Counted from the stretch's first letter, positions 3 to 35,040 are shown. The stretch is 64,000 nucleotides of DNA from Thermodesulfobacteriota bacterium (GCA_965208155.1 OZ242322.1:1153732-1217731), one strand, 5' to 3'. Program-made: numbers and translations. The notes: generated by a model not told the origin, from the letters alone.

Positions 3-584
3 TTGGAACCTCATTCCCGAGCTGATAAGATACATGACTCCCGGGCTACTCTCGAAGGTCAGTTGCGCGAGTGCTTCGGGCGTGTTGTATACTCCCACAA
101 GACCCATGAAAAATGCGCCGACATCCTGCTATCGCGACTTGCATGGATTAAGTTGTTGCAGATTGCCCTCTCGGCCATAACAACTGGCGGTTGTATCGCC
201 ATCGCGTTTGGTGCGGGCAACACCGGTATCCTGATTAGCGTTATAGTATCAACACTATTGCTCGCATTGAACATGTACACCAAAGATTACAATTTAGGTG
301 AACTTTCTGAGAAACACCGCCAAGTAGGAGCAGACCTCTGGATAATACGAGAGAAGCACCTTTCCCTTATCACGGATTTGCGGATGGGAAATAAGCCTGT
401 TGAAAAATTGCAAGCAGACCGAGACAGGCTGCTTGACGAACTACATGCCATCTATTCAGCAGCTCCGAGCACAACTCATAAAGCATACAAGAAGGCTCAA
501 AAAGCACTCAAGCAATCTGAAGACATGACATTCTCCGATGAAGAAATTGATGCTTTTCTGCCGAATGAACTTAAGAAAAATTGA
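3..584 (+). CDS. 2-TM membrane protein, SLATT-like (possible CBASS/SMODS-associated effector-type fold); 5' end cut by the window edge, so the true start is unknown
   Basis: The ORF is open from the window edge. Two adjacent hydrophobic helices (LAWIKLLQIALSAITTGGCIAIAF / GILISVIVSTLLLALNMY) are followed by a ~100-aa charged helical tail. The TTG at position 3 is probably not the real start. Confidence 0.45.
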   Translation: MEPHSRADKIHDSRATLEGQLRECFGRVVYSHKTHEKCADILLSRLAWIKLLQIALSAITTGGCIAIAFGAGNTGILISVIVSTLLLALNMYTKDYNLGELSEKHRQVGADLWIIREKHLSLITDLRMGNKPVEKLQADRDRLLDELHAIYSAAPSTTHKAYKKAQKALKQSEDMTFSDEEIDAFLPNELKKN

Positions 585-639: not shown

Positions 640-891
640 ATGAGACAAGAATTTGAGAAAATAGGGGCGGAGGAAGTTAAGTATTTCATTCTTTCTCTCT
701 CGTTTGAAGACTCAGACACATACTACTATTTCAAAGAAGGATTTACTCGTGGCAGAGGCCACACGTCTTTGCTTACCGAGAGTGAATGCTCAAAGATCAA
801 GGCGAAGCTTGAGGAGAAAATGCCCGAGTGCAATATTCAGTGTAACCACAAGGCAAATATATTGAAGTTTCCTCAAAGCTTTTGGAAATGA
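640..891 (+). CDS. Hypothetical small protein (83 aa)
   Basis: ATG preceded by a GGAGGT RBS at ~8 nt. No recognisable motif. Confidence 0.35.
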   Translation: MRQEFEKIGAEEVKYFILSLSFEDSDTYYYFKEGFTRGRGHTSLLTESECSKIKAKLEEKMPECNIQCNHKANILKFPQSFWK

Positions 892-908
892 TTAGGGGGG
901 AGATAAAA

Positions 909-1099
909 ATGAAGAACAGCAGCGATAATGAAAAAGTGGTAACGGATAAGAAGAAAGAAGACCAGCTTTCCTCCACGAAGCGGCATGAAGTCAAAAAACC
1001 TGTCGGAGAATTACTGAAAAGCGCGGGAGAGAAGAATTGGGATGAAGAAGGCCAAATAGGAACCAGTAAAGATTCTGTACCCGTGGCCGAACAAGCGGT
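909..1099 (+). pseudogene. Probable N-terminal fragment, in a different frame, of the downstream AlbA_2-type regulator gene
   Basis: ATG at 909 has a strong GGGGGAG RBS. The encoded ...GELLKSAGEKNWDEEGQIG...VAEQAVCLQA resembles the N-terminal EfK / AFAN strand of AlbA_2 domains. The frame is lost before reaching the body of the gene. Confidence 0.35.
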
Positions 1100-2443
1100 T
1101 TGCCTTCAGGCACCTTGGATAAGAGCCGTATGCGTCAGGGCACATGTACGGATTTGTGCGGGGGCGACAGGATGGTTCTCGTCATCTGGGTTCCAGGAGG
1201 AGAGACGAGACCTTACAAGGCCAGAACCGCTCTTTCCGGCAAATCTTCCGAATGGGCTTGGTACATAAGGAAGCAGTTAAGCACCGTGCGTGCCGGGGCC
1301 GCCGACGAACGGGAGCTTCTGAGCCTCGCTGCCACAGTGCCTTTCGATGACCGTTACAACCAGAGATCCTCGATAGATGATTTGTCACTGAAGCTGATTG
1401 AGGAATTTCTCGCTGAGGTAAGAAGCAGTCTCGGGGATCAGGCCGCCGGAGTTACCATGGAGGCCCTTGGGCGGCGGATGAATATTGTGGGCGGTCCGCC
1501 CGAATCCGTTTTCCCGAAGAATATAGGGTTGATGTTCTTCAACGACCACCCCGGGTCTTTTTTCCCTGCGACGCAGATTGACGTGGTCTGGTTTCCCAAC
1601 GGACCCGGCGGCGACCGTTTTGAAGAGAAGATCTTTGAAGGCCCCTTGCCGAAGATGATCCGAAGCGCCCTGGAATACATCCAGCGCGGCTACCTGAAAG
1701 AGACAGTCGTCAAGCACCCGCAGCGCGCCGAGGCCGACCGCTTCTGGAACTACCCGTACGCAGCCGTTGAAGAGGCGGTCGTAAACGCCGTTTATCACAG
1801 ATCCTACGAGATCAGGGAACCCGTGGAAGTGCGGATAACCCCTGAGGAACTGAGCGTGTTGAGTTACCCGGGCCCCGACGGGTCAGTCATAATCGAGGAT
1901 CTGAGAGTCGGCAGGGCGGTAAGCCGTCGCTACCGCAACCGCAGGATCGGAGAGTTTCTGAAAGAATTGAATCTTGCCGAAGGTCGCTCCACCGGCATTC
2001 CCAAGATTCTTAAGGCCATGAGCGAAAACGGGTCTCCCGCCCCTGTTTTCGAAATCGACGGGGAACGAAGCTACTTTTTAACCCGTCTTCCTTCGCATAC
2101 TTATGCTCCCGGGAGAACCGAGAAGACATCCGAGAAGCGCGCGGCCCATAACGGGGCCCATGACGAGGCCCATGACGCCTCCGCCGTGAACCTGAGCGGC
2201 ACGGAACGCCGGATATTGATTGCCTGTGGGGAAGGCCCGCAAAAGGCATCCGAACTTCTCAGGGCTCTTGGCTACGAATCCCGCACTGGCAATTTCAAAA
2301 GGTCTCTGGGTCGTCTTCTGGATTCGCGGATACTGGAAAAAACTCTGGGAAGCGCGCCGAGGAGCAGGAATCAGAAATACAGGCTGACGGAGCGGGGCCG
2401 GGCCATCGCGTCGGATCTGGGTGCCGGGGATATCGAGACATAA
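1100..2443 (+). CDS. AlbA_2 (divergent AAA / Schlafen-like) putative transcriptional regulator with C-terminal winged-helix HTH (RecG-C-terminal-like family). The N-terminal domain appears truncated or frameshifted.
   Basis: MVLVIWVPGGETRPYKAR...AWYIRKQ matches the second half of AlbA_2. The central HATPase_c_4-like region and C-terminal ...GTERRILIACGEGPQKASELLRALGYESRTGNFKRSLGRLL wHTH are typical of this family. The N-terminal ~60 aa of the domain are missing from this frame. Confidence 0.6.
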   Translation: MPSGTLDKSRMRQGTCTDLCGGDRMVLVIWVPGGETRPYKARTALSGKSSEWAWYIRKQLSTVRAGAADERELLSLAATVPFDDRYNQRSSIDDLSLKLIEEFLAEVRSSLGDQAAGVTMEALGRRMNIVGGPPESVFPKNIGLMFFNDHPGSFFPATQIDVVWFPNGPGGDRFEEKIFEGPLPKMIRSALEYIQRGYLKETVVKHPQRAEADRFWNYPYAAVEEAVVNAVYHRSYEIREPVEVRITPEELSVLSYPGPDGSVIIEDLRVGRAVSRRYRNRRIGEFLKELNLAEGRSTGIPKILKAMSENGSPAPVFEIDGERSYFLTRLPSHTYAPGRTEKTSEKRAAHNGAHDEAHDASAVNLSGTERRILIACGEGPQKASELLRALGYESRTGNFKRSLGRLLDSRILEKTLGSAPRSRNQKYRLTERGRAIASDLGAGDIET

Positions 2444-2497: not shown

Positions 2498-2839
2498 TCA
2501 GGGTACTGGTTTTTCCGTATGCCGCCCGCCGGATACGAGCACTACGTGGTCTTTTTCTATTTCCCTGTGAAAATTTTCCGGTAAGCGCGTCCAGTCTCGG
2601 GCTTCCACCAGAAAGGGAATGTTTGACTCCCGAAACGCCTCTGAAAGCGCCTTCAGCCGGTCGGCTTCAATCCGCCGCAGCCCGGGCGCGCGCAACGCCA
2701 GGTCCAGGTCACTTCCCCCATGGCTTCGGCCATGAATACGGCTGCCGTAAACCCAGGCCTCGACTTCGGGCAGGTGGCGGCGCAGCAACGATTCGATCAT
2801 CTTGCGATGTCTTGAAGATAAGCTCAGTCTTTCAGCCAT
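2498..2839 (-). CDS. Minimal nucleotidyltransferase (MNT / HI0073 family) – antitoxin-like partner of the HEPN protein
   Basis: GSRIHGRSHGGSDLDL is the GS...DxD polymerase-beta-type NTase motif. 113 aa. Overlaps the upstream HEPN gene by 8 nt. Confidence 0.8.
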   Translation of the reverse strand: MAERLSLSSRHRKMIESLLRRHLPEVEAWVYGSRIHGRSHGGSDLDLALRAPGLRRIEADRLKALSEAFRESNIPFLVEARDWTRLPENFHREIEKDHVVLVSGGRHTEKPVP

Positions 2840-3254
2840 CGTCTGTTCCTTCTATTACGTCTGCCAGCGCTTTGGCATCTGCCGTAAAATCCGGAAGCAG
2901 CCTGATTGTGCTCTCGGCGAAACTTTTTCCGTAGCCGTGTGCCGTGTCGTTACGATTGTCGCGGTATAAAAGCCAGCGCTCGCAGGTGTCGGAGTCAATG
3001 AGACCGTGCTTGGCGGCGTAGCGGAAAATATCCTTGAAAACCAGCCGGTCCGCCTGACGGTTATCGGCGAAATAGGGGCCCAGAACTTTTCTCAGCAGTT
3101 TGCCGCTTTGCTCAAGAATAATTTCGAACTCTTTTACGCAGGCTGCGCGGTAGACGTCATAGGCAATTTCATCCGGGTCTCTGCGTTCAAGCTCTTTTAA
3201 GCAGTGTTCAAGAGTGTCAAGGCAGCGCCTGAGAAATTCCGTATTGATGCTCAT
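2832..3254 (-). CDS. HEPN-domain protein, nucleotidyltransferase substrate-binding HI0074 family (toxin-like partner)
   Basis: R-x4-HxY HEPN motif (RNDTAHGY). 140 aa. Translationally coupled to the MNT gene. Confidence 0.8.
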   Translation of the reverse strand: MSINTEFLRRCLDTLEHCLKELERRDPDEIAYDVYRAACVKEFEIILEQSGKLLRKVLGPYFADNRQADRLVFKDIFRYAAKHGLIDSDTCERWLLYRDNRNDTAHGYGKSFAESTIRLLPDFTADAKALADVIEGTDDG

Positions 3255-3525: not shown

Positions 3526-3815
3526 ATGAAGATCAAACTTATATCTATTGGCAGCTCGAAGAGAATTCGTATCCCTTCGTCGGTTATCGGCAGTGCGGGC
3601 TCGGCAGCGAACTGGAGATGTGCGTCGGGAACAAAGTAATCATGCTTGCGCCTGTGCAAAGTGTGCGCGAGGACTGGAGTGCTGCCTTTGAAAAAATGGC
3701 GACCGCAGGTGACGACGCGTTCCTGATGTGCTTGAAAATGATTTCGATGCCGAAGGCTGGACATGGTAGGGCAGACTGGGATGGCAGCTCTGTGTTGAAA
3801 AAAATGCCGATCTAA
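3526..3815 (+). pseudogene. MazE/PemI-type (AbrB/SpoVT fold) antitoxin gene carrying a frameshift near 3600; no cognate toxin gene follows
   Basis: MKIKLISIGSSKRIRIPSSVIGSAG... (frame 1) continues in frame 0 as ...ELEMCVGNKVIMLAPVQSVREDWSAAFEKMATAGDDAFL, the typical MazE swapped-hairpin and C-terminal tail. AT-rich non-coding DNA lies downstream. Confidence 0.55.
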
Positions 3816-3887
3816 TCCTGTAAAAATTGGCCCTTTTCCCGGTTTCAGGTAGATATACCTCTTGTGTGAGGAAAGTATGTTATTCAA

Positions 3888-6027
3888 GTTGAACCTGAAT
3901 TCCCAACTATAGGGAGTGAAGTTACATCCAAGATAAGTTTCATTCCGTATTTCTGTGTTTTTTCGCAGTAAGTCAAGCAGATTTGTCATTATTATAGTTA
4001 ACTTATAAACACTTTACCACTTATTTACAGCAACCCACCCACCCAAAACTCAATTCAGCAGTACTGCTCTCCAACTTCTCATATGCCATCCCTATATCAG
4101 ATTAACCCACTGCAAGTAAACCATTTAACTCACCTTATCCTCCAACCCCAACAAATATTGCTTGACAATGACGAACATACAGAATATAGTATTAGCTATA
4201 GTGATAGTGTGTTTATCTATTTACTATCTGCAATGACATCACCGCACGCAAAAAGATTCCTGGAACCAACAAATCCAGCAAAAACGTTATGAAGCCCTGC
4301 GCGCATACCACGTAGACGGATTGTCGTCAGCTGAAGTGGCCATACGTTTCGGATACTCCCATGGAACGGTCCGTAACATCTGTTCGGAATTTGCGAACAG
4401 CGATGATCCGGATTTCTTTTTGCCCAAACCGCGCAAACGCAAAGCCACACGCAAAGAAGACGAATCCCTCAAACGCAAGGAGAGGATAGTGGAGTTGCGC
4501 AAATCAGGCCGTCTTTCTATCTATGACATCATCAATGTTTTGAAGAAGAAAGGTGTTTCTGTGAGTTCGGCCTATGTTCACGGTGTGCTTAAAGGGGCGG
4601 GGGTACAGAAGCTTGCGCGAAGGTCCCTGGATGAGAGGCTGGACATTGTACGGGCACATAAAGCGGCTACGTCTGACCGAAGGGTGCTGAATCTGGGTTC
4701 CCGGACGTTTCGTACCGAGTTTGCTGGGTTGTTTCTGTTTGCCCATGATCTTGGGAGAGCAGACATTGACGGGATAGTGGAGCGAAGCGGCATGCCTGGG
4801 AGCGGGATGATACCGGCGGGGTGCGCGTTTCGTTCCCTGCTTGCTTTGAAGCTATGGGGGATAGGAAGACCTTCACGGATAATGGCAGAGACTCTTGATG
4901 AGGGGTTAGGGCTGTTCTGTGGTCTTAACGTAATACCGAAGCGAAGCACTCTTACGGAGTATTCATGCAGGATTGATCCGAGGATGAATCCCGGGCTTAT
5001 GGACAGGTGGTATAAAGTGGTACGCGGTCTTGGAGTCAATCTTGGAGGGGAGGAATCGTTTGATCTTGATTTCCACGCTATTCCCTATCACGGGGACGCG
5101 GCGTTGGTAGAACGCCACTATGTATCGAAGAGGAGCAGGCGTCAGAAGGGGATACTGGCGTTTGTAGCGAGGGATGCTGACGCGAGGATGTTTGCCTGGG
5201 CCAACACTGATATACGCAAGAAGGGGGCAAGCGATGAGATACTGCGGTTCATAGAGGGGTGGGAGAAGCGTACGGGGCGCAAGCCCAGGGAGCTTGTGTT
5301 TGACAGTGGTTTTACCACGTATGCCAATCTGGGGAGGCTTGAGGAGATGGGGATAAGGTTTCTGACATTACGAAGAAGGTCTGAGAAGATGGTGTCTGTG
5401 TTGGCTTCAAAGCCGTCTTCTGAGTGGAAGAAGATAAGGCTCAGCAATGTGGGCAGGGAGTACAGGACCCCTAAGATATATGAGCAGAGGGTTAAGCTCA
5501 GGGATTATCCCGGGGATATACGACAGATAGCAATAAAGGATCTTGGACGCAGGAAGCCGGTGCTGCTTCTGACCAATCAGATGGAGGAGAATGCGGCGAA
5601 GCTTATAGACCGTTACGCGAGGCGAATGATAATAGAGAATACGATAGCGGACGCTATAGACTTTTTTCACATGGACGCGCTTTCTGCGGCTGTGGCTATG
5701 AAGGTTAATGTGGACGCACAGCTTACGGTGATGGCCAGTGGGTTGTACAGGGTATTGGGGAAGCGAGTGGGTGATGGGTATGATGTAGCGAAGGCGAGTA
5801 CTATATTCCGGGATCTTGTGAGGGCAAGTGGAAAAGTAGAGGTAAAGGGGGATGAGATAATAGTGAGTCTTGGACGCCGTGCGAACAATCCGCTGCTCAT
5901 AGCTGCTGGCTATGGGGAGATGGAAGAACGAATCCCCTGGCTTGATAATCGTGTTCTCAAGATAAGGTTCTTCTGACCCCCCTCAAAGTGTCATGTCAAT
6001 TCCTGCAGTTGGGAATTCAGGTTGAAC
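3888..6027. mobile_element. Insertion sequence, IS4-superfamily (IS1634-like?), ~2.14 kb, single transposase gene, 21/22-bp terminal inverted repeats
   Basis: Left end GTTGAACCTGAATTCCCAACT (3888-3908). Right end reverse-complement is GTTCAACCTGAATTCCCAACT (6007-6027), one mismatch. The IRs flank a 551-aa DDE transposase. No flanking direct repeat is visible. Confidence 0.65.
4321..5976 (+). CDS. DDE transposase of the IS (N-terminal HTH; C-terminal Y-x2-R-x3-E signature, RYARRMIIEN)
   Basis: 551-aa ORF between the IRs. HTH-like segment LSSAEVAIRFGYSHGTVRNI. The start is ambiguous: TTG at 4321 with an open frame upstream, and a short ATG ORF at 4233 in the neighbouring frame (MTSPHAKRFLEPTNPAKTL) ending at an A5 run. 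Confidence 0.75.
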   Translation: MSSAEVAIRFGYSHGTVRNICSEFANSDDPDFFLPKPRKRKATRKEDESLKRKERIVELRKSGRLSIYDIINVLKKKGVSVSSAYVHGVLKGAGVQKLARRSLDERLDIVRAHKAATSDRRVLNLGSRTFRTEFAGLFLFAHDLGRADIDGIVERSGMPGSGMIPAGCAFRSLLALKLWGIGRPSRIMAETLDEGLGLFCGLNVIPKRSTLTEYSCRIDPRMNPGLMDRWYKVVRGLGVNLGGEESFDLDFHAIPYHGDAALVERHYVSKRSRRQKGILAFVARDADARMFAWANTDIRKKGASDEILRFIEGWEKRTGRKPRELVFDSGFTTYANLGRLEEMGIRFLTLRRRSEKMVSVLASKPSSEWKKIRLSNVGREYRTPKIYEQRVKLRDYPGDIRQIAIKDLGRRKPVLLLTNQMEENAAKLIDRYARRMIIENTIADAIDFFHMDALSAAVAMKVNVDAQLTVMASGLYRVLGKRVGDGYDVAKASTIFRDLVRASGKVEVKGDEIIVSLGRRANNPLLIAAGYGEMEERIPWLDNRVLKIRFF

Positions 6028-7416
6028 ATAGAGAATTTTGGCAGACTAGCCGAAGCGGAAATCCGTATCGGGCAATTCACGGTTTTCTCCGGACCTAACA
6101 ATACGGGAAAAAGTTTTGTCTCAAAGCTTTTGTACTCCCTGTTCGACGTGATGAATGCCGACCACGCCCGGATGTACTTCAACATGCTGTCCCGCCCCGT
6201 ACTCAATGGTCTTTTAGACTTGGGAAGTTCCAGTTTCGCCAAAGAGAACGAAGAATCACTTGCCAAGATGGATTCACTTATGGGCTTGATAGGCACCTTT
6301 TTTGAGCATGGATATTCACGCAATCTGGAAGAAAAATGGCCTGATATCAGTGCCTACGCAAGGGAACTGAAAACGGAGCATGTACAGCTTGAGAGAAACC
6401 TCGACAAATGGGCGCGGGAAGAAGGAGCTTTCGTGTCCGGCAAAATCCATAAGAAAACCTTGGAAAGAATGAAAGATGATATAGACCGCTTCTGCGGTGC
6501 ACTTAAGAACAACGCCAGGGAATTTGCCATGGACGGCATAAAAGAGAGGATCTCTCAAAACCTTGTCCGGAATTTTCAGACGGCCAACCTTTCAAACCTG
6601 AGAAAAGATCAAACCCGACCGGCTAGAATCGTTCTCGATAATGTTGGTGCGTTTACGATTGAAAACACCAGGTCGGTTGATTTCAGTATCAAGGATGAGG
6701 CGAGCTTTCACGGACTCCAGGAATACTCAAGAGTGATCTATCTGGAATCCCCTCTTTACTGGAAGCTGAAATCTGCACTGGAGGGGATCAAAATGGCTCC
6801 ACGCTTTCTTTATAGCGGGGGCAAGGACGCTTTAAGCGGAGTGCCTGGTTACTTCTACGATCTGGCTAGGGCGTTGAGAGTAGAATATACAGACGACGGT
6901 TGTCACAAGGGGTTTGTGAACCTCTACGAACGACTGATCTCAAAAGAAGTAATGGATGGAAAGCTTGTGGTTTCCGAGACTGGAGAGCTGCGGTTTGAAG
7001 ACAATAAACACGTTCTCCCTCTACCTTTACATCTTGTCGCGATGGGCGTTGTCAATATCGGTATTCTTGCTCTGCTCATCGAGCGTAGAATTATAGACGA
7101 GGGTTCTTTTCTTTTTATTGACGAGCCAGAGGCGCACCTTCACCCATCTTGGCATGTCAAGATCGCCAAAACGCTTTTTGATTTATCTCGGTTGGGCGTG
7201 AATGTTGTAATCGCAACCCACAGCGTGGACATACTTAAGTTTCTTGAGGTGGAAGTGAACAAAGACCCAGGAAACAAAGAACTTATAGCGCTTAACCGTT
7301 TTTCATCTGAAGGCATCGAAGGTGGTGGAGAAGGCTTCGACAGCAAACTTGATGCTATACAGGAAAACCTGACCGAGCCGTTTTCCGCTCTTTTCCTGGA
7401 GGACTTACAATCTTGA
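6022..7416 (+). CDS. ABC-type ATPase of the OLD / AAA_15-AAA_21 family (no fused Toprim domain)
   Basis: N-terminal IENFGRL...FSGPNNTGKS Walker A. C-terminal LFIDEPEAHLHP Walker B/D-loop and ATHS H-loop. The track's TTG start lies inside the IS right IR; the native start appears displaced by the IS. Confidence 0.8.
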   Translation: MNIENFGRLAEAEIRIGQFTVFSGPNNTGKSFVSKLLYSLFDVMNADHARMYFNMLSRPVLNGLLDLGSSSFAKENEESLAKMDSLMGLIGTFFEHGYSRNLEEKWPDISAYARELKTEHVQLERNLDKWAREEGAFVSGKIHKKTLERMKDDIDRFCGALKNNAREFAMDGIKERISQNLVRNFQTANLSNLRKDQTRPARIVLDNVGAFTIENTRSVDFSIKDEASFHGLQEYSRVIYLESPLYWKLKSALEGIKMAPRFLYSGGKDALSGVPGYFYDLARALRVEYTDDGCHKGFVNLYERLISKEVMDGKLVVSETGELRFEDNKHVLPLPLHLVAMGVVNIGILALLIERRIIDEGSFLFIDEPEAHLHPSWHVKIAKTLFDLSRLGVNVVIATHSVDILKFLEVEVNKDPGNKELIALNRFSSEGIEGGGEGFDSKLDAIQENLTEPFSALFLEDLQS

Positions 7417-7958
7417 CGTCGCTTGAAGGTTTCGCAGGACCCCTGAAGATCAGGAAGCTTGTGGGGGAGGAGGGCAAGACGTGCGAGTTTCCCGCAAAAG
7501 CCTACGCGGTTGATAAGCCCGCTCCCGGAAATCGAAAGACCCTCAAAGGTCAATACCAGATGGACAACGCTCATTCCTGCGATTATATACTCATTAATGA
7601 CAGCAATGTTTTATTGCTGGAAGACTCGAACCTCGGGGAAAAAAAGAAAGAATTGGAGAGAAAGTACTCTGGAGAATTGTCTATAAGAATCATTGGGAAA
7701 GAACAACTTTTAAAAGCTTACGCAAGCTTGCTGCTTTTATGCAAAATCGCATCTTCGGACAGAGCCGCTAGGAGGATGATAAAGGACAAGGCAGTTAATT
7801 TTTGTGTTGTATGGAATGATGTTAAGCTGACTGATTCCCGTGTGTTTTCTCAGGTGAAGCGACAAGTGGAAAAACCCTTGAAAGGGATCGTGTCAAAGGT
7901 TTTTGTCCTATCCCTGACAGAGTTAGAGAGTATAATCGCGGACTATCCAAAGCAATGA
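7413..7958 (+). CDS. Small (181 aa) partner protein of the ATPase, possibly Toprim-like / DUF4276-like
   Basis: Start overlaps the ATPase stop by 4 nt (GGAGGA RBS inside the ATPase 3' end). N-terminal KIRKLVGEEG and a later LLLEDSNLGEKKK acidic patch resemble the Glu / acidic-cluster layout of small Toprim-like partners of OLD-type ATPases. The domain assignment is tentative. Confidence 0.5.
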   Translation: MTSLEGFAGPLKIRKLVGEEGKTCEFPAKAYAVDKPAPGNRKTLKGQYQMDNAHSCDYILINDSNVLLLEDSNLGEKKKELERKYSGELSIRIIGKEQLLKAYASLLLLCKIASSDRAARRMIKDKAVNFCVVWNDVKLTDSRVFSQVKRQVEKPLKGIVSKVFVLSLTELESIIADYPKQ

Positions 7959-8463: not shown

Positions 8464-8521
8464 TTGACACCCCAAGAAACGTGCTTACTTTATAGTTGGC
8501 ACTTGGAAGACGCAAGTGCCA
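8464..8521 (+). promoter_or_regulatory. groESL promoter region with a CIRCE-like HrcA operator
   Basis: TTGACA at 8464-8469. Perfect inverted repeat TGGCACTTG-N7-CAAGTGCCA at 8497-8521, compared with the CIRCE consensus TTAGCACTC-N9-GAGTGCTAA. Lies ~35 nt upstream of groES. Confidence 0.5.
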
Positions 8522-8557
8522 GAGAGGCTTTAAAAAGTTAAAAAGGAGGTATTAGAG

Positions 8558-25482: not shown

Positions 25483-26598
25483 CTAACTAAGTTTTGCGCT
25501 CATAGCATTTTTTCCAATGGCTGAGCCCGACTTGATTTCGATCCCGAGTAGCGCCCCGTCATCTCTTTCAACCAGGAACTCAATCTCGCGCTTTTCGCGG
25601 TCACGGTAATGAAACAGGTTGTATCTTCCGGCGCTGGCATCCGTCTGGGCGGCTATTTCGTTGAACATGAAGGTTTCGATCAGCTTGCCCGAGCGATAAG
25701 CGTCCATGCGGATCAGCTGCCTGTTCCAGCCGAGAATCGAAGACATAAGTCCCGAGTCGGTCATAAAAAGTCTGGGGCGCCGCCCCGTCCGCGCGTAATC
25801 GGTGCGTTTCCACGCCCTTATGCGCTCGACCACATACAGGGCTTCCAAGGCATTTATATATGTCTCGACCGTGGGGCGAGCAATGGAAAGTCCGGCGCCT
25901 ATGGATGAGATGTCCATGAATTTGCCCGACCATGCCGCCAGGGTGTGTATCAGTTCGCTCATGGCGTCGCGTCGCTGGATACGCCCGAGGTCCCTCAGGT
26001 CGCGCTCCAAAAGCGCGTGCACGTAATCCCGATGCCATAGTCTTCGTTCTGCCTCTCCAAGCAGAATGGCTTCCGGGAAACCGCCTCCAAAAGAGATGTC
26101 CAGCATAGTGTCACGGTCGTAAGCGCGGTCGGGATGGCAGAAATCCTGTCTGAAAGCCCGGTCAAGGAAATCCGGAGGCGCCCCCAGAATTTCTCCATGC
26201 GTGAGCGGACGCAGCCGTACCTTTCTTATGCGCCCGGCGAGAGATTCCCGCACCCCGGGGGAAGACTGTATGTCGGCCGAACCCGTCAGCAGGTATTGTC
26301 CGGGCCTTGTATCTTCATCTACATTTATCTTGATTGCGGAAAGCAGATCGGGAGCACGCTGGATTTCGTCAATGAAGAGGGTTTTTCCCGAGTGCCTAAC
26401 GAAGCCTCGCGGGTCGGTTTCGGCAATCTGCCGTACGGCCGGATCATCTAAAGCGCGGTAGGCGATATCCTCTGAAACCAATTCCTTGGCAAGAGTAGTC
26501 TTGCCGCATTGCCGCGCTCCGCAGAGCAACCCCACGCGGCGCGTTTCGAGGGCTTTTTCCAAAGTGTCCCGCTGCCAGCGGACATAAGAACGTGACAT
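25483..26598 (-). CDS. AAA+ ATPase with C-terminal DUF4143 (COG1373 family), paralog of 21423-22595
   Basis: CGARQCGKTT Walker A; FIDEIQR Walker B; 371 aa. Confidence 0.8.
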   Translation of the reverse strand: MSRSYVRWQRDTLEKALETRRVGLLCGARQCGKTTLAKELVSEDIAYRALDDPAVRQIAETDPRGFVRHSGKTLFIDEIQRAPDLLSAIKINVDEDTRPGQYLLTGSADIQSSPGVRESLAGRIRKVRLRPLTHGEILGAPPDFLDRAFRQDFCHPDRAYDRDTMLDISFGGGFPEAILLGEAERRLWHRDYVHALLERDLRDLGRIQRRDAMSELIHTLAAWSGKFMDISSIGAGLSIARPTVETYINALEALYVVERIRAWKRTDYARTGRRPRLFMTDSGLMSSILGWNRQLIRMDAYRSGKLIETFMFNEIAAQTDASAGRYNLFHYRDREKREIEFLVERDDGALLGIEIKSGSAIGKNAMSAKLS

Positions 26599-26713
26599 GA
26601 TCCTAAACTCGCTGTATTGCTATTTCCGTATCCGCGATTTTGCAAAAATTGCACCCGCGTTTTTATAGAAATAATACTCGCGTTTTTATAGAAGACAATG
26701 TTCCCAGGTTGTA

Positions 26714-29700
26714 TTATCCGGCATCGTTGTTTTTCCGCTGCTGCGCCCTGCTGCTTTCTATCGTCTTTTTGATCCGGGCTGTTTCCCCCTCCCCGGAGGC
26801 GTCGTCCGATCTGGCGTTATCGAGGCGCTCACGCACTCCTTTGGTAGAGCGCTTAAGGCGCTCTCCGCCCTTAAGTATCTCCTCCCGCCCCGCCCCGGGG
26901 TCTTCTGCGGTCCTTGTCGCGGCGCTCCCGATTCCGTCCCGGGCCCGCTCACGCGCCCGTCCCGCTTCCTCTCTCACCGCGGCTGAATCTTCCTCTATGG
27001 AGCTTTGCGTCCGCTCCACTCCGGCGCCACCTGCCCCTCCCGCCGACTTTGCGTATCCCCCGAAGGCCCCCTCCGCGTCGACCTCGAACCTGCGTACGTC
27101 CCCGAGACCGTAGCTGTCAGCAGGCATAGCGGCGACCGATTCCCTTTCCCTGGTCCCGCTCCCCGCCCCGATGAGTCCCGAAAGACCCGTAACCCTGTGT
27201 ATCGACCCGGAGACGGCTTCCGCTTCCTCCGTGTCGTATCTTCCGTCGCGAAGGTCGGCAAGTCCTCTGGCCGCGTAGCCGTCCGAATAGCCCTGCCCCC
27301 TCATGTCGGCAAACACCGTCTGGGTGTACTCCCTCTCAAGCCCCGCGCCGAAGGAGCTTTCCCCGGAGAGCACTTCGGAGTACGCCCTTGCCTTCTCCCT
27401 CTGGGAGGAGTAGTCCTGAAGGGAGCTTCTTGCTGAGCGAAGCTCGGCCCTTGTCTCCTCTGAGTCCCGGGCCGTGAACTGCATGCTCTCGCGTGCCTCT
27501 TTTGATGAAAGCGTGCTCTCAAGCTCGGAAAAAGCCGTTGAGAAATTCACCCGGGAGTTAGAACTCGAGGCAAACTCCCGGGCTTCCTCGTATCTCTCGG
27601 AGGCGCTTGAGTCCGTCTTTCGCGCTCCCCGCGCCTTTATCCCGGCTCCGACCGACGCTCCCCCGCCGCCGAGGCCCGCGGAGGTCCCCGCCCGAGCACC
27701 CGCCTCGTAGACCATCGCGGTGTCCCACGACATCTTGAGCGACTCCTGGCGGGAGAGGCCGAACCTGCTCTGAAGGCTCTCGGCCGTCTCAAGCACGGTC
27801 GCGAGATCCTTTTTCTCGCCCGTCACGCTTGAGAGCCCGAGCACCTCGGAGTAGCTCTTCTCGTCAGCCGCCGTGCGCGAGGCCCCGACCACCCGCACGG
27901 ACGCCGCGGCCGCGGAATCCGTTACCGCCTCCCTGCTCGCCTCCATGTTCCTCATGGTGTCGGCGAGTTCCTCCCTCGCCGCAAAGCGCACCCCCTCCGT
28001 TCCCGTTATCCGCATCCCGCCCACGCTCGAGGCCGGCTGATCGTAGACATTTTCGTAGCGGCGGCTGAGATTGCCCGTTATGGTCTCCCGCGCGATGTCT
28101 GACTTGTTCGCCGTCACAGTGTCGTAGCGCCCTGTCGCGACCGACACGTTTCCAAGCGATATGTTTCCGGCGGCGTGGGCCCCGGCCGTCTGGGTCGAGA
28201 TCGACTGCGTGGGTCCCATGAACTGCTGCACGGCTCCCACCACGGCGTGCTGGCTCGCGGAGACGACGTAGTAGGCGATCATGGGGACTATGGTGGCCGC
28301 AAGCCCCGCGACCGCCATTGCCATGTCGCTCTCGTGGACCACCGACCCCCTTGATATCACGGTGAGCGAGCCGTCCGTGTAGGGCTCAAGCGCTCTTGAG
28401 AGCTTCAGGCTCGAGAACAGGTTCACTATGGCGTATATGGGATTCCAGAGCTCGGTCCAGAGCATCGCGATCAGGTAGGCGGGGATTATGCGCGCGGCAA
28501 GCGGCGTCATCGCCAGGAAGATCACCGCGGGGAATATGCCGTAGAGCATTCCCTGGAGAAGCCCCCTTATGTAGGGGAGGGTGTGGCGGGCCATCTCCCC
28601 CAGCACGAGAAACGAGTGTTTCTGCCTCGCGCGCGCCTCGGCGATAGAGAGGCTGAGAAGCGAGGCCTCCGAACCCCCGGCGACCGCAAGCGACCTCACC
28701 GAGCGCGAGTAGCTGTTTATCATGGCGTTCTGGATGATTATCTCCTTTGCCGACATCGAGACCCCGGCAAGCTCCCTGTACGATTCACGAAGGGCCTCGG
28801 TGAAGCCGGCGGTGTCGGTTATGTTCGTCTGGCGGTTGACGAAGCCGGATTCCTCGGCAAGCTCAACCGACCACCCGGGGTAGTAGGCGCCGAGGCAGGC
28901 TCGCACCCCTGCGTGGGCCTCCCCGCAGTAGGCGAGTATGGGTCTTGGGGCCGCGGAGCAGTCCCCCGCGCTCGGAGGGGAGGCGTACGCGCCCGCGGGC
29001 AGAGAGACGTTCGTGTGGAGTTCGACAAAACGGTAGTTTGCCGTTCCCATGGAGGAGAAAAGGTCGGCCGACTTCTCAAGGCTGGCCGGGCTCAGAAGCC
29101 CCGAGGTTACGCTCTTTAGGCCGCACTCCCTAACAAACGAGTCAAGCGTGTTGGCGAGATGAGGCTCCGCGACCGCAAACGAGGTCGAGCGCTTTATGAG
29201 CTCGGCGCCGCGCAGCAGCCCGTTTTTCGAGTAGCTGAGCGAGTCGGGAAGCGAAAACGCTCCCTCCATAATCTTGGTGAGGCCGCCCCCGACCCCCGAA
29301 GTCGCCCAGGCGAACACGCCGACCCCGGCCGGCACCGAGGATATCACTCTCGTGTACGAGGTCACCCTGTCGTAGACCGCCATGTCGACCTTAACGCCAA
29401 AGAGCGTCATGTAGATGAGTATGGAGAGCGCGAACTGGTGGCCCGGCGCCATCCTTCCTCCGAAAAGAGAGGACAGAACCGCAAGCAGTATGCCGGCCAC
29501 GAGTCCCAGGCGTATGAGACCCAGCAGACCCGAGCCCGCGAGGATCGCTATTGAGTTCAGCACCTCGGCTATGAACTGCCCGTTTCCGTAGGTGTCTATC
29601 TGGAAGACTCCCTGCGCCCCCGCCGTCTCCGGGAAAAGCAGCACCCCGGCAAGCGCGGCAGCCCCGAGCGCAAAAGCAGGCCCCGGAACCTCGCCGCGCG

Positions 29701-29716
29701 CGTTTTTTCTGCCCAT
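26714..29716 (-). CDS. traG: F-type conjugal transfer protein TraG (mating-pair stabilisation / pilus assembly; TraG_N domain with a long low-complexity C-terminus)
   Basis: 1000 aa. Polytopic N-terminal TraG_N region. Last gene of the tra operon, following traH as in F. Confidence 0.8.
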   Translation of the reverse strand: MGRKNARGEVPGPAFALGAAALAGVLLFPETAGAQGVFQIDTYGNGQFIAEVLNSIAILAGSGLLGLIRLGLVAGILLAVLSSLFGGRMAPGHQFALSILIYMTLFGVKVDMAVYDRVTSYTRVISSVPAGVGVFAWATSGVGGGLTKIMEGAFSLPDSLSYSKNGLLRGAELIKRSTSFAVAEPHLANTLDSFVRECGLKSVTSGLLSPASLEKSADLFSSMGTANYRFVELHTNVSLPAGAYASPPSAGDCSAAPRPILAYCGEAHAGVRACLGAYYPGWSVELAEESGFVNRQTNITDTAGFTEALRESYRELAGVSMSAKEIIIQNAMINSYSRSVRSLAVAGGSEASLLSLSIAEARARQKHSFLVLGEMARHTLPYIRGLLQGMLYGIFPAVIFLAMTPLAARIIPAYLIAMLWTELWNPIYAIVNLFSSLKLSRALEPYTDGSLTVISRGSVVHESDMAMAVAGLAATIVPMIAYYVVSASQHAVVGAVQQFMGPTQSISTQTAGAHAAGNISLGNVSVATGRYDTVTANKSDIARETITGNLSRRYENVYDQPASSVGGMRITGTEGVRFAAREELADTMRNMEASREAVTDSAAAASVRVVGASRTAADEKSYSEVLGLSSVTGEKKDLATVLETAESLQSRFGLSRQESLKMSWDTAMVYEAGARAGTSAGLGGGGASVGAGIKARGARKTDSSASERYEEAREFASSSNSRVNFSTAFSELESTLSSKEARESMQFTARDSEETRAELRSARSSLQDYSSQREKARAYSEVLSGESSFGAGLEREYTQTVFADMRGQGYSDGYAARGLADLRDGRYDTEEAEAVSGSIHRVTGLSGLIGAGSGTRERESVAAMPADSYGLGDVRRFEVDAEGAFGGYAKSAGGAGGAGVERTQSSIEEDSAAVREEAGRARERARDGIGSAATRTAEDPGAGREEILKGGERLKRSTKGVRERLDNARSDDASGEGETARIKKTIESSRAQQRKNNDAG

Positions 29717-29722
29717 GGCTCC

Positions 29723-31123
29723 TCAGTTCGCCCCCTGTATGATCTCGTCACCCGCCCTGTGGCGGCTTTTTCTCTCGAACACAACGGGGGAGCGGGAATC
29801 AAGGTGCTCTATTATGGAGAGGGCGTAGACAAGCTCCTCTATCTTCGTGTTTTCCTGCTCCATCATGAGCGAGACCTCCTCGCGAAGCATCCTCATCCGC
29901 TCGGCGATCTTTTTTCTGTCCATCGCCGAGAGCGTTCCCCTCATCTGCGAGCTCCCGACTCCGCTCCAGAGGCTTCGCTCCGCCCGCTCAAGCCACGCCG
30001 CAACGGAGAACACGGCTATCGGCCTCGCAAGCGCCGAGACGTAGGTTCCGCCTATCTCGGGATCCACGGCCCCGGCCGAGGAGAGAAGCTTCCACGCGGG
30101 AAAGGGAAGGGCGTCTAGGAACCTGACGGTATCGTCCTGCGGGCGGCGGTTTCCGACTATGGCCGCGTGGGCCTCGAGCAGCTTCTCGGAAACAAGTTCC
30201 GAAAACGGCTTGAAGTTCGCCCCGACGGGCACCGTCGCGGGCGAAGCGCAGTAGGGATCCCCGCCGCAACTGTACACGCTCCCCGCGCCGCCTCCGCCCG
30301 CGAGGTACTCGAGGCTTATGGTCGGGGGCTTGTACTCAGAACCCGTCTGGGTGATTATGAAGGTTCCCGTGACGCTCATCACCTGCTCTTTCTGCTCCTT
30401 TGAGAGGGTTGCCGCGGGAATGGTCCGAAGCGCCTCCCACACGGTGTTCCTGGTCGGCCGCACCAGCTCCTTGTCCTGCGTTACCGTGCCCGCGTTTATG
30501 TCCGCTACGGTGCTTGTCATTCCGCTCTGGGTGCGGCACTCAGAGAGCCCTTCCGCGGGATCGGTGAAAAGCGACTGCTTTACTCCCACGAACGCGCAGC
30601 GCCCCGCCTGCTCTCCCCTGATCACTCCCCCTTCCCCGAATATTCCCTCGGCGAGGCTCTCCCCCGCCCTGCACGTGTCGACGCTCAGCGAGTTTGCGGC
30701 GCGCGAGGCGGCCTCGAGCTTTTCCATTATGTTCTCGCACGGGGAGCAAAGCGTCTTTAGCGCCATCATGAACGCGTAGCTCGCAAACGACGTTCCTATG
30801 GTCTTCATCTTCCGTATGAGATCATCCGCGCTTATGTAGGAGATCGCCCCCAGGAAAAGATCCACCCCTCCGCACCCCGAGCGCAGGTGCGGCAGGCTCA
30901 CCGAGAGCGGCTGTATGGTTTCGTTAGGGAGCCTCACCGAGACCGAGCCTCCGGTGACAAAGCCCCTTGACTGCCCCTCGTAGACCCCGGCCGGAGTGGC
31001 GGTCCCCGAGAGCCCGAGGCGGTCGAACATGCCGCGGACCTCGCTTCCGAGATCGGCCATGGAGACCCGGGGGGAGAAAAGCAGGGTGAAAACAAATACT
31101 GCCACAAGGGATATCTTCCTCAT
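29723..31123 (-). CDS. traH: F-type pilus assembly protein TraH
   Basis: Signal peptide, MFDRLG, GCGGVDLFLG and other TraH hallmarks; 466 aa. Confidence 0.85.
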   Translation of the reverse strand: MRKISLVAVFVFTLLFSPRVSMADLGSEVRGMFDRLGLSGTATPAGVYEGQSRGFVTGGSVSVRLPNETIQPLSVSLPHLRSGCGGVDLFLGAISYISADDLIRKMKTIGTSFASYAFMMALKTLCSPCENIMEKLEAASRAANSLSVDTCRAGESLAEGIFGEGGVIRGEQAGRCAFVGVKQSLFTDPAEGLSECRTQSGMTSTVADINAGTVTQDKELVRPTRNTVWEALRTIPAATLSKEQKEQVMSVTGTFIITQTGSEYKPPTISLEYLAGGGGAGSVYSCGGDPYCASPATVPVGANFKPFSELVSEKLLEAHAAIVGNRRPQDDTVRFLDALPFPAWKLLSSAGAVDPEIGGTYVSALARPIAVFSVAAWLERAERSLWSGVGSSQMRGTLSAMDRKKIAERMRMLREEVSLMMEQENTKIEELVYALSIIEHLDSRSPVVFERKSRHRAGDEIIQGAN

Positions 31124-31956
31124 TTCCCCTCCCCGCCGAGCAGCAAAAGCCCCCTGTCCTCCCCGCTCCCCGCTCCGAGCACTTCCTCTCCCACTACGTG
31201 GAGCCTTCGCCTTATTTCCCCCAGAGTGAGGTAGCCCGTGCCTATACGGGCGATCTTTCTCCGTGAGGGTATGAAAAGGAAAAGCGCCGGCACACGCTCG
31301 ACTCCGAGGCGCGCGGCCTGCGCCGCGCCGTCAACAAAGTGCGGGTAGAGGGGGTGAAGCCCCCTTCCGTCAAGCGACGCCGCGAGTACCCCGATCCCGT
31401 GGCGGCGCTCAAGGGTTTTTATGATCTCCGCCTGCCCGCGGCAAAACGGGCAGTCCGAGCGGAAGAAGAAAACGAGCTTTCCCGCCCGGGATATTTTTCC
31501 GATCACACGGTCCCGCGCGGTTTTCCTGAGATTCCTTGAGATCTCGGCTCCCGCGGCGCTTACCGGGTTATCGACCGTTTCGTCAAGAGCCGGGCTCTCC
31601 CATAGCACCCGTTTCCAGACGCGCGCGAATTCCTCGCTTCTCTCAAGCACCCGCTTCTGGTGCTCCATGTACGCCCTCACGTTCTTTTTTGTCGGCGAGA
31701 GAAGCGCCGCCTCAAAAAGCCTCTCTCCCCTTTTCCTTATCTCCTCCGCACTCGGCTGCCTCCCGGAGGTTGCGGACCGAGCCTCATCCCTGTGCGCGGA
31801 GAAAGGCTCGTACCAGAACCACCCCCTTTCCCTCTGGTCAAAATAGGTCTCCCCGAGGGCCGGGGGCAGCGCAGCTGAAAACATGGCCAGAAACGAAAAG
31901 ACAGCCGCCCTCACCGCTCCCCCTCCCCGCCGCAGCCAAGCGATTCGTCCGGGCAC
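31120..31956 (-). CDS. traF: TraF / TrbB-like thioredoxin-fold protein of F-type T4SS (with CxxC)
   Basis: GWFWYEP N-terminal motif; FFFRSDCPFCRGQAEII thioredoxin-like CxxC. Confidence 0.7.
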   Translation of the reverse strand: MPGRIAWLRRGGGAVRAAVFSFLAMFSAALPPALGETYFDQRERGWFWYEPFSAHRDEARSATSGRQPSAEEIRKRGERLFEAALLSPTKKNVRAYMEHQKRVLERSEEFARVWKRVLWESPALDETVDNPVSAAGAEISRNLRKTARDRVIGKISRAGKLVFFFRSDCPFCRGQAEIIKTLERRHGIGVLAASLDGRGLHPLYPHFVDGAAQAARLGVERVPALFLFIPSRRKIARIGTGYLTLGEIRRRLHVVGEEVLGAGSGEDRGLLLLGGEGK

Positions 31957-33104
31957 ATATCCTCGATATCCTCTACTGTGCCCTCTGCTGACTCCGAAAG
32001 ACCGGGAGTGTCGGCTGTGTCAACAAGTCCCTCGTAAATCTCCGAGAAATCCACCGCGTCAAAGTCTATTTCCTGGAGCTGCTCTGTGGTCATCCCTCCG
32101 CAGTGGGGACTTTTGGCCCGGCCCCAGCCGCCGTTTGCGGCCGTGGGCCACAGGCCTTTTCGTATGAGCTGCCCTCTTGTCTGCTCGTGCACCACCCTTG
32201 CCATCCTGGAATTAAAGCAGCAGTAAACCCTTCTTTTCTTGACGGTGATACCGAATACCTTTTTCCTGTGGATGCCGATATAGTGGCAGGCCCCCGCGCC
32301 GTCCCTTCTCGCGCGAAGCTCCTTGGTGCTCCTGGGGCACGCGCCCGAGAATATCCCCTCTTTTGCGCAGCAGTTCTGTACGAATCCCGCGAGATTCAGA
32401 TCGCAGCGGTAGCGCTTTCCCTTGAATATCGTTACTCCCCCGCCCGAGACATCCGCGCAGTCGATCGGTCCCGCGGTCGCCCCCGTGGCCTCGTCGACCT
32501 CGATGGGTCCGTAGCCCTCGGCGGAACTCTCTCCGTCCCTGGTAGTCGCGAGGCAGCGCTCCATGTCGTCGAGCATGGCCATGCGCGAGGCCACTTCGGG
32601 AAAATCGGCGCTCTGCGCGGTCTGCGTATCGAAACACTCATCCCCCTCTGCGCATCGGACCTCCGTTTCGCACACCCCGCTCTCCCCGCACGAGGGGCTC
32701 TCGATCGGCATCTCGGAGTTTGCGGTCACGGAGCCGGTTTCGGGAGAGGCGGGGCGCTTCGCCGAGCTTTGCTTGAGATGGCCCGCGGCGTCGGAAGTAA
32801 CGGGGTCCCCGCTTTGTATCCGCCCGGCTCCCTCCTCTCTCATCCCTTCCGGATTCCCCGTCCACCGCTCCCCCTCGCGGATGAATTCCTGTCGCTCTGC
32901 CTCTCCGTATCCCGGAACCGTCTGCGGCGAAGAGGGGTTAAGCGCAGAAGAGTGGCGGGAGAGCATTTCCTCTCCGTGGCGGCGCCCTTGGTCAAGGGCC
33001 TCCCGAAAATCGTCCCCGCCTCCCGCCGCGGGCGCAAAGATAAGCGCGAGGCTAATTGTCATAAAAACCGCCGCGAGAGAGTTTTTCAATGAATATCCCT
33101 GCAT
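31911..33104 (-). CDS. traN: TraN (Cys-rich mating-pair stabilisation adhesin), short form
   Basis: C-terminal hallmark ...YCCFNSRMARVVHEQTRGQL...CGG...EQLQEIDFDAVDFSEI. Many Cys. Confidence 0.8.
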   Translation of the reverse strand: MQGYSLKNSLAAVFMTISLALIFAPAAGGGDDFREALDQGRRHGEEMLSRHSSALNPSSPQTVPGYGEAERQEFIREGERWTGNPEGMREEGAGRIQSGDPVTSDAAGHLKQSSAKRPASPETGSVTANSEMPIESPSCGESGVCETEVRCAEGDECFDTQTAQSADFPEVASRMAMLDDMERCLATTRDGESSAEGYGPIEVDEATGATAGPIDCADVSGGGVTIFKGKRYRCDLNLAGFVQNCCAKEGIFSGACPRSTKELRARRDGAGACHYIGIHRKKVFGITVKKRRVYCCFNSRMARVVHEQTRGQLIRKGLWPTAANGGWGRAKSPHCGGMTTEQLQEIDFDAVDFSEIYEGLVDTADTPGLSESAEGTVEDIEDMCPDESLGCGGEGER

Positions 33105-33732
33105 TCGGATCCTCCTTTTTCATAAGCCCGAGAGCGCGGGGAAGCGCTATGTCCCCCAAAACCTTTACGTGGCGAAGCCCCCCGCAGTCCGAACCCGGCA
33201 GATAGCCGTAGGCAAGCACAAGCTGCGGCACCGCCCCGACCGCGAGGCACTCGAAAAGAACGGGGTCTATCCAGACCTCCGCTCCGCCGATGCCTGATAT
33301 CCGCGAGGCGGTTTCCCCGAGGCTCCCTCCCGAAAGTCCCCGCAAAACCATCACCGCTCCCCCGGCCGCGCTCTCCCGTGCCGCCTCCCGAAGAGAGGAG
33401 CGCGGCATCGAAAATGAGAAAAAGTAAAAAAGCCCGGGCGCATCGCCTGTGCCTGCGTTTTTCTCGGCTCCCGGGGGCTTTACCGAGAGCAGCTCCATTA
33501 CTTTTTCGGTTTCTCCGGGGGAGTTTATTTCAGAAAGTGTTTTCTCCGCCCCCGCCACATCAGGCGAGAGCAGCTCTCCCATGAGTTTCCTCGCGCGTGA
33601 GATATCCGCGCGGCCGGGTTCAGTCCTTATTTCCCCGAGCGAAACGGGATTCTCTGCGGGCACTGCCGGCGTTGCGGCTAGCGTGGCCGCGATCAGAGCA
33701 GGCAGCAGTCTTTTTTTCTCCATAGAACCCAT
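33052..33732 (-). CDS. trbC: F-type pilin-assembly protein TrbC (start chosen at the internal ATG with a GGAGAGG RBS)
   Basis: GLFYFFSFSMPRSSLREAARESAAGGAVMVLRGL matches the TrbC_Ftype core. The ORF-track start at 33882 would overlap traU by 190 nt. Confidence 0.7.
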   Translation of the reverse strand: MGSMEKKRLLPALIAATLAATPAVPAENPVSLGEIRTEPGRADISRARKLMGELLSPDVAGAEKTLSEINSPGETEKVMELLSVKPPGAEKNAGTGDAPGLFYFFSFSMPRSSLREAARESAAGGAVMVLRGLSGGSLGETASRISGIGGAEVWIDPVLFECLAVGAVPQLVLAYGYLPGSDCGGLRHVKVLGDIALPRALGLMKKEDPNAGIFIEKLSRGGFYDN

Positions 33733-34682: not shown

Positions 34683-35040
34683 TCTAGTAATAATGTATTA
34701 CAAAAAAGGGAATAAGGCAAGCGGAATCCGCCCGGGCGGCGAAGTTTCCGCCTGGCTTGCGGGATATGCATTGCGGGAAGTTCTCTTTCTTCGGAAAAAA
34801 AGGCGCGGGGCCCTTCCCGCGGCCCGCAAGCACAGAGGGGGTTTGGATTTTTCAGGCGAATTAACCGCGAGGATAACGGGCAATGTCTCCGGGAAAGCTT
34901 GCGCGTCCGCGAAGCAGGCGATGCTAAAGGAAAATGCTTGTGCTCCCGAGAGCAGATACATTAGATGTCTTGATAATTTTCCCTGTATGATATAATAAGT
35001 TGTATTAAAAATTACTTTTTATATATAATCATATATCAAA

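Follow-up and report, generated by a model that had tools for sequence, protein, structure and literature searches.

The 64,000-nt stretch of Thermodesulfobacteriota bacterium DNA analysed here (GCA_965208155.1 OZ242322.1:1153732-1217731; "the window") carries two overlapping open reading frames (ORFs) on its plus strand, an upstream one of 464 amino acids (aa) at 6022..7416 and a downstream one of 181 aa at 7413..7958, sharing 4 nt (cTTGAc). The locus is probably a two-gene module of an anti-phage class in which an ATP-binding cassette (ABC) ATPase, as sensor or regulator, is paired with a small PD-(D/E)xK nuclease as effector; WonAB, HEC-02, PD-T4-4 and the operons termed "OLD-ABC ATPase + novel REase" (restriction endonuclease) belong to it. 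From its sequences, the window family appears to be a divergent branch of this class, with an insert in the ATPase, a larger partner protein with an added hairpin and longer spacers, Ser or Thr in place of a lysine of WonB, and an invariant K101 and D34. A previous sequence-only reading of the window had described the two ORFs and their overlap correctly, and had suggested a split, defence-like module in which an ABC ATPase of OLD/AAA_15 type is joined by a small protein from an overlapping gene, which the evidence below supports. Its further suggestion, that the partner is a Toprim-like protein, fared less well.

Both ORFs are real genes, as their homologue clusters show. The ATPase has more than 1000 clusters of homologues, all full-length, and for the partner there are 25 close clusters, covered over the full length; a partner profile run against 1.84 billion representatives found 194 at E <= 1e-3, nearly all of them stand-alone proteins of 170-220 aa. 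The partner gene begins with TTG, with a GGAGGA site 9 nt 5' of it.

The upstream protein has the complete set of ABC motifs (Table 1), although its signature is degenerate, and matches AAA_15 (1e-19) and AAA_21 (1e-15) in Pfam; no nuclease or other effector domain was found in it by Pfam, in agreement with what the sequence-only reading had said of its motifs and of the missing nuclease domain. Over its full length it matches phrog_14430 in PHROGs (4.5e-71). The best of its 127 PADLOC matches is to HEC-02A (PDLC04214, 1.1e-27), followed by AriA (2e-22), NsnB, PD-T4-4_A (1.5e-20) and others, with Old, GajA and AbiLi models also matched. Against the validated HEC-02A of Dickeya (sequences from the supplement of bioRxiv 10.1101/2024.01.29.577857), BLASTP gave 4e-16, with 33% identity over 120 aa. 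In profile scores, HEC-02A reached 67.6 bits and WonA homologues 25-55 bits. An AlphaFold2 model of the ATPase has a predicted local distance difference test score (pLDDT) of 84, and its closest Foldseek matches are PtuA (3.4e-6), retron PtuA, AriA and OLD; as modelled, the protein has the expected ABC fold, and it belongs to the OLD/AAA_15 clade.

The two genes travel together. A census of representative genomes in GTDB, with the ATPase alignment as query, gave 53 loci with an orthologue (30-51% identity), and in 52 of these a gene of the partner family (hidden Markov model E-values 1e-72 to 2e-7) is the next gene downstream and has the same orientation; in most cases the two overlap or are no more than 15 nt apart. 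The pair is also present in L001-L004 and on three IMG/VR viral contigs. Conservation as neighbours, which the sequence-only reading had proposed as a check, is thus borne out, with viral contigs and a conjugative element (below) in addition. In the lone exception (L005, 6371-9371) the partner has been lost, and the ATPase gene is followed by AT-rich non-coding DNA and then by a convergent gene for an 861-aa protein, whose N-terminus looks TIR-like by eye. Distant relatives of the ATPase (21-26% identity; Bacteroides, Ruminococcus, Moraxella, a gut phage) likewise all have small overlapping partners, with a classic D...ExK motif (e.g., VDFVV...LLLVEAK).

The locations vary. For the partner homologues with 47% and 37% identity, the gene directly 5' encodes an AAA_15 protein of 462-464 aa, and the insertion point is between purC and thrS. 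In L004 (1-16546), the orthologous pair nearest in sequence to that of the window (85-86% identity) is inside an F-type conjugative type IV secretion system cluster (TraV, TraC, TraU, TraN, TraF, TraH, TraG), immediately 3' of an AbiEii-family gene (5.4e-29). The family is nearly absent from cultured phages and plasmids: there was one weak match in the phage collection, and the plasmid collection gave partial matches only. Its hosts (L005-L057) are mostly uncultivated and often sponge-associated, including Latescibacterota, Ca. Spongiihabitans, Poriferihabitaceae, Nitrospirales, Thermodesulfobacteriota/Dadabacteria, Arenicellales and Poribacteria. This patchy, mobile and island-associated spread would be typical of defence cargo.

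One further observation concerns the two families jointly. In a metagenomic protein of 445 aa (P0081), about 260 residues from the N-terminus of a cognate ATPase, with Walker A but lacking Walker B, are fused to a complete partner domain. Whether this protein arose by deletion or frameshift or is a true fusion, it connects the ATPase and partner families.

The nature of the partner protein was approached through two alignments, one of the close family (25 sequences) and one of 119 diverse relatives with a mean column identity of 17%. Across the 119, only D34, D57, E70 and K101 are invariant, with A30, C56 and Y58 nearly so, in the layout C-D-Y ... h-h-h-E-x-[T/S/K]. Position 72, the last of these, is occupied by T (66 relatives), S (40), K (10) or G (3); with K in those 10, about 8% of the family retain the canonical D...ExK, as C-D-Y...L-I-E-x-K. 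Of the "EDS" acidic patch singled out by the sequence-only reading, then, the glutamate (E70) is invariant, while D71 varies and S72 may be S, T or K.

The core of the PD-(D/E)xK fold is alpha-beta-beta-beta-alpha-beta; beta2 begins with an Asp, and beta3 contains an acidic residue. In the AlphaFold2 model of the partner (pLDDT 92.3, predicted template-modelling score 0.90), D57 is just ahead of strand 58-61, E70 is in a hairpin strand (65-72), and K101 is in a long helix (87-115), with strand 127-134 next; the modelled arrangement resembles the beta2(D)-beta3(ExK)-alpha-beta4 layout of this fold. The motifs, with the profile comparisons below, point to a predicted variant PD-(D/E)xK effector, resembling WonB, the "novel REase" proteins and HEC-02B. 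Its predicted active site would consist of D57 and E70, with Ser72 replacing the canonical ExK lysine; D34 and the helix residue K101 are also invariant. Some stray matches were discarded: Plasmodium CyRPA, the sole sequence match of the partner profile in the PDB (E = 0.003), is compositional or spurious, and a Pfam SYY_C-terminal match (E = 0.013) and a single McrBC match (E = 0.006) were below threshold and not recurrent, and were not used.

Evidence for the assignment comes from WonB, the 16-kDa variant PD-(D/E)xK protein of WonAB, a Vibrio cholerae system from the WASA-1 prophage characterised in 2025 (PMC12137116). Comparison of the partner family by hhalign with ten WonB sequences gave P = 6e-4, and with a 130-sequence WonB alignment P = 5.8e-5 and a score of 35.1, with three motif blocks in register. 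The reversed control scored 11.7; 60 column shuffles scored 11.1 +/- 1.8 (maximum 15.3), and 60 shuffles of eight-column blocks 19.1 +/- 2.7 (maximum 29.0). The collinear blocks, shared with the WonB homologues of Table S4 in PMC12137116, are Y-x-h-D-G in WonB and A-Y-x-M-D-G in the window family; C-D-[FY] in both; and h-h-h-E-L-K and h-L-I-E-x-T/S/K respectively. The partner profile also reaches individual WonB sequences at E = 1.2e-4. Homology of the partner to WonB and the novel REases is supported by these alignments at a significance that is moderate, not overwhelming. HEC-02B points the same way: among the matches listed, it is the only PADLOC family that the 119 relatives match repeatedly, with about 14 member matches spread over at least 8 models (1.4e-5 to 3e-2); the best is P0133 to PDLC04220 (1.4e-5).

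Several results argue against placing the pair in this class, or at least against an active nuclease in it. The window partner itself has no match in Pfam, PADLOC (0 families), NCBIfam or PHROGs. Foldseek found no significant neighbour for its model in the PDB or BFVD (all E > 0.01, template-modelling scores ~0.35 or lower), so the fold assignment comes mainly from motifs and profile comparison; the matches of best probability are weak (up to 0.66, E > 0.1) but are to PD-(D/E)xK folds (Spo16/Zip2 XPF-like, the Can2 nuclease domain, Nt.BspD6I, XPF, FokI, MUS81). Comparison by hhalign with Dickeya HEC-02B was not significant (E = 0.16), and with the ExK partners of the distant ATPases marginal (E = 0.044), both in the right register (for HEC-02B, CDY...LIE on MDV...LIE). 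Since the window partner has Ser where WonB has its essential lysine K71, nuclease activity would not be assured. Finally, the insertion described below means that the window copy may do nothing at all.

If the pair works as its relatives do, the ATPase would dimerise through its ABC head and bind its nuclease partner; binding or hydrolysis of ATP, linked to some infection cue, would license the nuclease, which would then cut a nucleic-acid target and so abort the infection. A more specific version of this proposal is that the family is a distinct branch with a rewired active site, in which the ExK lysine has become Ser or Thr and the helix residue K101 and an extra aspartate, D34, have been recruited. 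Its substrate or chemistry could then differ from those of WonB and HEC-02B (a specific RNA, for instance), and the ATPase insert might be a new sensor surface. This is a tentative idea, and on present evidence a rather doubtful one.

Loss of the ExK lysine also makes it possible to read the partner as a catalytically dead REase-fold adaptor or sensor, with the effector step left to the ATPase or to a third, host factor. At position 72, 106 of the 119 relatives have S or T; Spo16/Zip2, the best of the weak structural matches, is inactive and XPF-like; and the K71A mutant of WonB is inactive (PMC12137116). Absolute conservation of D34, D57, E70 and K101 at only ~20% identity is, however, typical of an active site, and the ATPase has no other effector domain to offer. 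Active PD-(D/E)xK enzymes that lack the canonical lysine, or take it from elsewhere, do exist (BamHI, BglII). A dead partner is accordingly considered unlikely.

The pair might instead be an addiction or stabilisation cassette of mobile elements, akin to a toxin-antitoxin, with no part in sensing phage. Its presence in a conjugative cluster beside AbiEii, on viral contigs and at varying chromosomal sites would fit such a role, as would the toxicity and Lon-lability of the related WonB (PMC12137116). In WonAB, however, simple toxin-antitoxin sequestration was excluded by experiment and WonB is toxic only with active WonA (PMC12137116), and both WonAB and HEC-02 reduce plaquing (PMC12137116; bioRxiv 10.1101/2024.01.29.577857). 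Sequence alone does not separate addiction from defence; with these two relatives as a guide, a pure addiction role seems improbable.

The sequence-only reading had preferred a split Toprim partner, such as AriB or DUF4276; a partner of that kind, or of the RloB type, would make this a PARIS-, AbiL- or class-2-OLD-like system. A Toprim fold needs a strand between its Glu and its DxD. This proposal is now very hard to sustain: the AriA, Old, GajA and AbiLi matches of the ATPase, the presence of AriA and OLD among its sequence and structure matches, and the order in the partner of a beta-strand with E70 at its end, helices, and a strand that stops close to D136, speak for it, but profile searches of Pfam, PADLOC, NCBIfam and PHROGs with the protein, its 25 close and its 119 diverse relatives gave no Toprim, DUF4276, DUF4435 or AriB match among the matches listed (RloB was matched by one of the 119 at E = 0.022, which is noise), the conserved residues are other ones, the candidate DxD aspartate D136 is present in only 66 of 119 with no DxD motif, the N-terminal "VGEEG" taken as its signature falls in a variable, gapped part of the close-family alignment, the partner model has no strand between E70 and the next strand, no Toprim is among the 432 Foldseek PDB matches listed to E = 10, and the relationship to WonB and the REases is positive evidence for something else. 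A Toprim partner is essentially excluded, and the PARIS/OLD-like architecture proposed along with it falls for that reason.

The preferred ATPase and PD-(D/E)xK module is not intact in the window. Homologues of the ATPase start MSFKLxIxNFGKL (MSFKL-N-I-E-N-F), four residues ahead of the TTG at 6022, while the in-frame codons upstream of that TTG read ...W-E-F-R-L-N-I-E-N-F. The explanation is an insertion sequence (IS; Table 1) bounded by a short target-site duplication. Directly to the left of the IS stand GAGGAAAGT and then the six displaced codons of the native 5' end, whose last 7 nt are the left copy of the duplication. When 3895-6027 is removed and 3877-3894 joined to 6028-7416, an open 468-aa ORF results (MLFKLNIENFGRL...), collinear with the homologue N-termini (MSFKLNIENFGKL). 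Because removing the IS restores such a gene, the TTG at 6022 is the internal Leu5 and not the native start, and the IS sits after codon 6; the ORF that the sequence-only reading placed at 6022 does exist, but its proper beginning is across the IS at 3868-3894. If the inverted repeat is instead parsed as 17 nt there is no target duplication, and the reconstructed ATPase gene is unchanged.

The IS has thereby cut the ATPase gene off from its promoter, its Shine-Dalgarno site and its first four codons. Both downstream ORFs are otherwise intact and every family-invariant residue is present, so the insertion looks recent. The transposase ORF, on the same strand as the ATPase, ends 46 nt 5' of 6022; no terminator-like site was found, nor was an outward promoter-like site at the right end of the IS. 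With the gene parted from its promoter, ribosome-binding site and start codon, the window copy is probably silenced or deregulated; at best, a protein four residues short could be made from the TTG at 6022 on transposase read-through transcripts. As a separate observation, the transposase and truncated ATPase ORFs share a reading frame, with a single TGA (5974-5976) and 15 sense codons between them (4321-6024). This is probably coincidence, though stop-codon read-through would give a fusion protein.

Table 1. Features of the ATPase, its partner and the insertion sequence; nucleotide positions are those of the window.
Feature	Residues	Position	Strand	Basis
Native 5' end of ATPase gene, displaced: GAGGA Shine-Dalgarno and ATG TTA TTC AAG TTG AAC (M-L-F-K-L-N)		3868..3894	+	read from sequence
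Target-site duplication GTTGAAC, 7 bp		left copy 3888-3894; right copy 6021..6027	+	identical copies
Insertion sequence, 2,126 bp		3895..6020	+	inverted repeats, transposase
Terminal inverted repeats, perfect, 14 nt: CTGAATTCCCAACT and AGTTGGGAATTCAG		3895-3908 and 6007-6020		
Promoter-like site in the IS, TTGACA-17-TATAGT		4162-4190		
DDE transposase ORF		4321-5976	+	Pfam DDE_Tnp_1 1.4e-9; NCBIfam IS1380 4e-15, below model cutoff
ATPase Walker A, GPNNTGKS	24-31	6091-6114	+	sequence
ATPase large helical insert, ~135 residues	about 48-185			
ATPase Q-loop, NFQ	184-186	6571-6579	+	sequence
ATPase degenerate signature, AMGVVNIG	340-347	7039-7062	+	sequence
ATPase Walker B, FLFIDE	363-368	7108-7125	+	sequence
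ATPase H-loop, ATHS	398-401	7213-7224	+	sequence
Partner D34	34	7512-7514	+	
Partner C56-D57-Y58	56-58	7578-7586	+	
Partner E70-D71-S72	70-72	7620-7628	+	
Partner K101	101	7713-7715	+	

The accessory neighbours of the pair are a SLATT_4 gene, a gene for a HATPase_c_4/Fic-like_C protein, an MNT/HEPN pair and the IS. The accessory setting given by the sequence-only reading is therefore right as to the HEPN/MNT pair, and SLATT_4 and HATPase_c_4/Fic-like_C can be named in addition; the MazE gene that it listed is unconfirmed. At the window edge, 3-584 (+) encodes a SLATT_4 two-transmembrane protein of effector type (Pfam 1.9e-70; PADLOC "Effector 2TM" 1.2e-80), with no partner gene (e.g., SMODS or reverse transcriptase) visible within the window. 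A 447-aa ORF at 882-2443 (+) has HATPase_c_4 and Fic-like_C winged helix-turn-helix domains and matches PADLOC models associated with prokaryotic Argonautes (2.4e-14). Its N-terminal region is overlapped in another frame by an ORF without a Pfam match (882-1268), and the gene may be frameshifted, with an AlbA_2-type N-terminus missing. The overlapping toxin-antitoxin pair of MNT (nucleotidyltransferase, 113 aa) and HEPN (NTase_sub_bind/HepT-like, 140 aa) is at 2498-3254 (-). Just 5' of the native ATPase start, at 3526-3815 (+), two short ORFs overlap in different frames (MKIKLISIGSSKRIRIPSSVI... and ...VIMLAPVQSVREDWSAAFEKMATAGDD); by their sequence they look like a frameshifted remnant of an AbrB/MazE-type antitoxin, but neither fragment has a Pfam match.

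On the other side of the pair, an inverted repeat at 8490-8525 (TTGGCACTT-N9-AAGTGCCAG), just 5' of groES (8558), resembles a CIRCE/HrcA operator, so that the defence island abuts the regulatory region of a heat-shock operon. The GC content of the gene pair is 0.46, against 0.56 in the flanking groESL region. The composition of the window is heterogeneous overall: G+C is 0.545 over its full length but 0.46-0.50 in the island and 0.62-0.65 at 26000-35000 and 51000-56000. No tRNA that would mark an integration site was found within 20 kb.

One consequence for annotation is that a small acidic partner beside an AAA_15 ATPase is not automatically a Toprim protein, and a misannotation of this kind is corrected here. 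A sizeable family, of about 190 representative clusters at 50% identity, is added to the WonAB/HEC-02/PD-T4-4 class. The class of ABC ATPase with small REase was known and has been validated twice; what is new is a family whose window partner escapes the models of Pfam, PADLOC-DB 2.0, NCBIfam and PHROGs. Since WonB cannot do without the Lys that is replaced by Ser or Thr here, the family lends itself to tests of how this active site works. The family is concentrated in metagenome-assembled genomes of sponge symbionts, a community known for heavy investment in defence. The IS split offers a clean example of the inactivation or deregulation of a defence operon by a mobile element, and a useful correction, the public gene call (TTG 6022) being that of a truncated gene. 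Reassignment of the partner and the lysine replacement are mildly interesting; neither these nor the split is very surprising.

The sequence-only reading considered the pair not obviously any named system. At the level of sequence this was fair, as PADLOC models miss the partner, but the class itself is named and validated (HEC-02, WonAB). Septu (PtuAB), PARIS (AriAB) and OLD/Gabija have ATPases of the same defence-associated ABC clade and share the design of an ATPase with a nuclease effector. Their effectors differ, being HNH in PtuB and Toprim in AriB, OLD and GajA, and none of these was found in the window pair; for Septu in particular, neither the partner nor its 119 relatives gave an HNH match among the Pfam and PADLOC matches listed. 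As for PD-T4-4, PD-T4-4_A models match the window ATPase and the two-gene layout of ATPase and PD-(D/E)xK protein is the same (PMC12137116); PD-T4-4_B is not among the best 25 of the 27 PADLOC families for the partner relatives.

HEC-02 of Dickeya dianthicola consists of an ABC ATPase and a NERD-like PD-(D/E)xK protein; both genes are required for defence, and plaquing is reduced (bioRxiv 10.1101/2024.01.29.577857). HEC-02A is the best PADLOC match of the window ATPase, and HEC-02B (169 aa) is a small downstream partner of similar size to that of the window. Differences lie in the ATPase, ~125 aa longer at 468 aa than HEC-02A (342 aa) because of its helical insert, and in the partner, where the ExK lysine has been replaced. 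An hmmsearch match to HEC-02B (P = 5e-4) was off-register and disregarded. The window system would escape a PADLOC call, since its partner matches no HEC-02B model and shows no significant similarity to the validated HEC-02B.

WonAB cuts plaquing and acts by abortive infection through translation shutdown, for which the WonA ATPase motifs and K71 of WonB are needed (PMC12137116); its authors group it with PD-T4-4 and with the "OLD-ABC ATPase + novel REase" operons of Krishnan et al. (2020) (PMC12137116). WonB is shorter than the window partner (~143 against 181 aa), which adds an N-terminal beta-hairpin and whose spacers, from D34 to D57 and past E70, are longer. The essential lysine of WonB (K71, in E-L-K-G) is Ser or Thr in 89% of the window family, the window protein included. 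An invariant helix Gln of WonB is not conserved in that family, where K101, in a later helix, is invariant instead. The window ATPase differs from WonA in bearing a different helical insert of ~135 residues; its N-terminal and Walker B/H-loop regions can nevertheless be aligned with WonA at up to 55 bits. In both, an ABC ATPase with OLD-type motif deviations is encoded first in a two-gene operon and a small, stand-alone protein of the variant PD-(D/E)xK kind second; both occur on prophages or other mobile elements.

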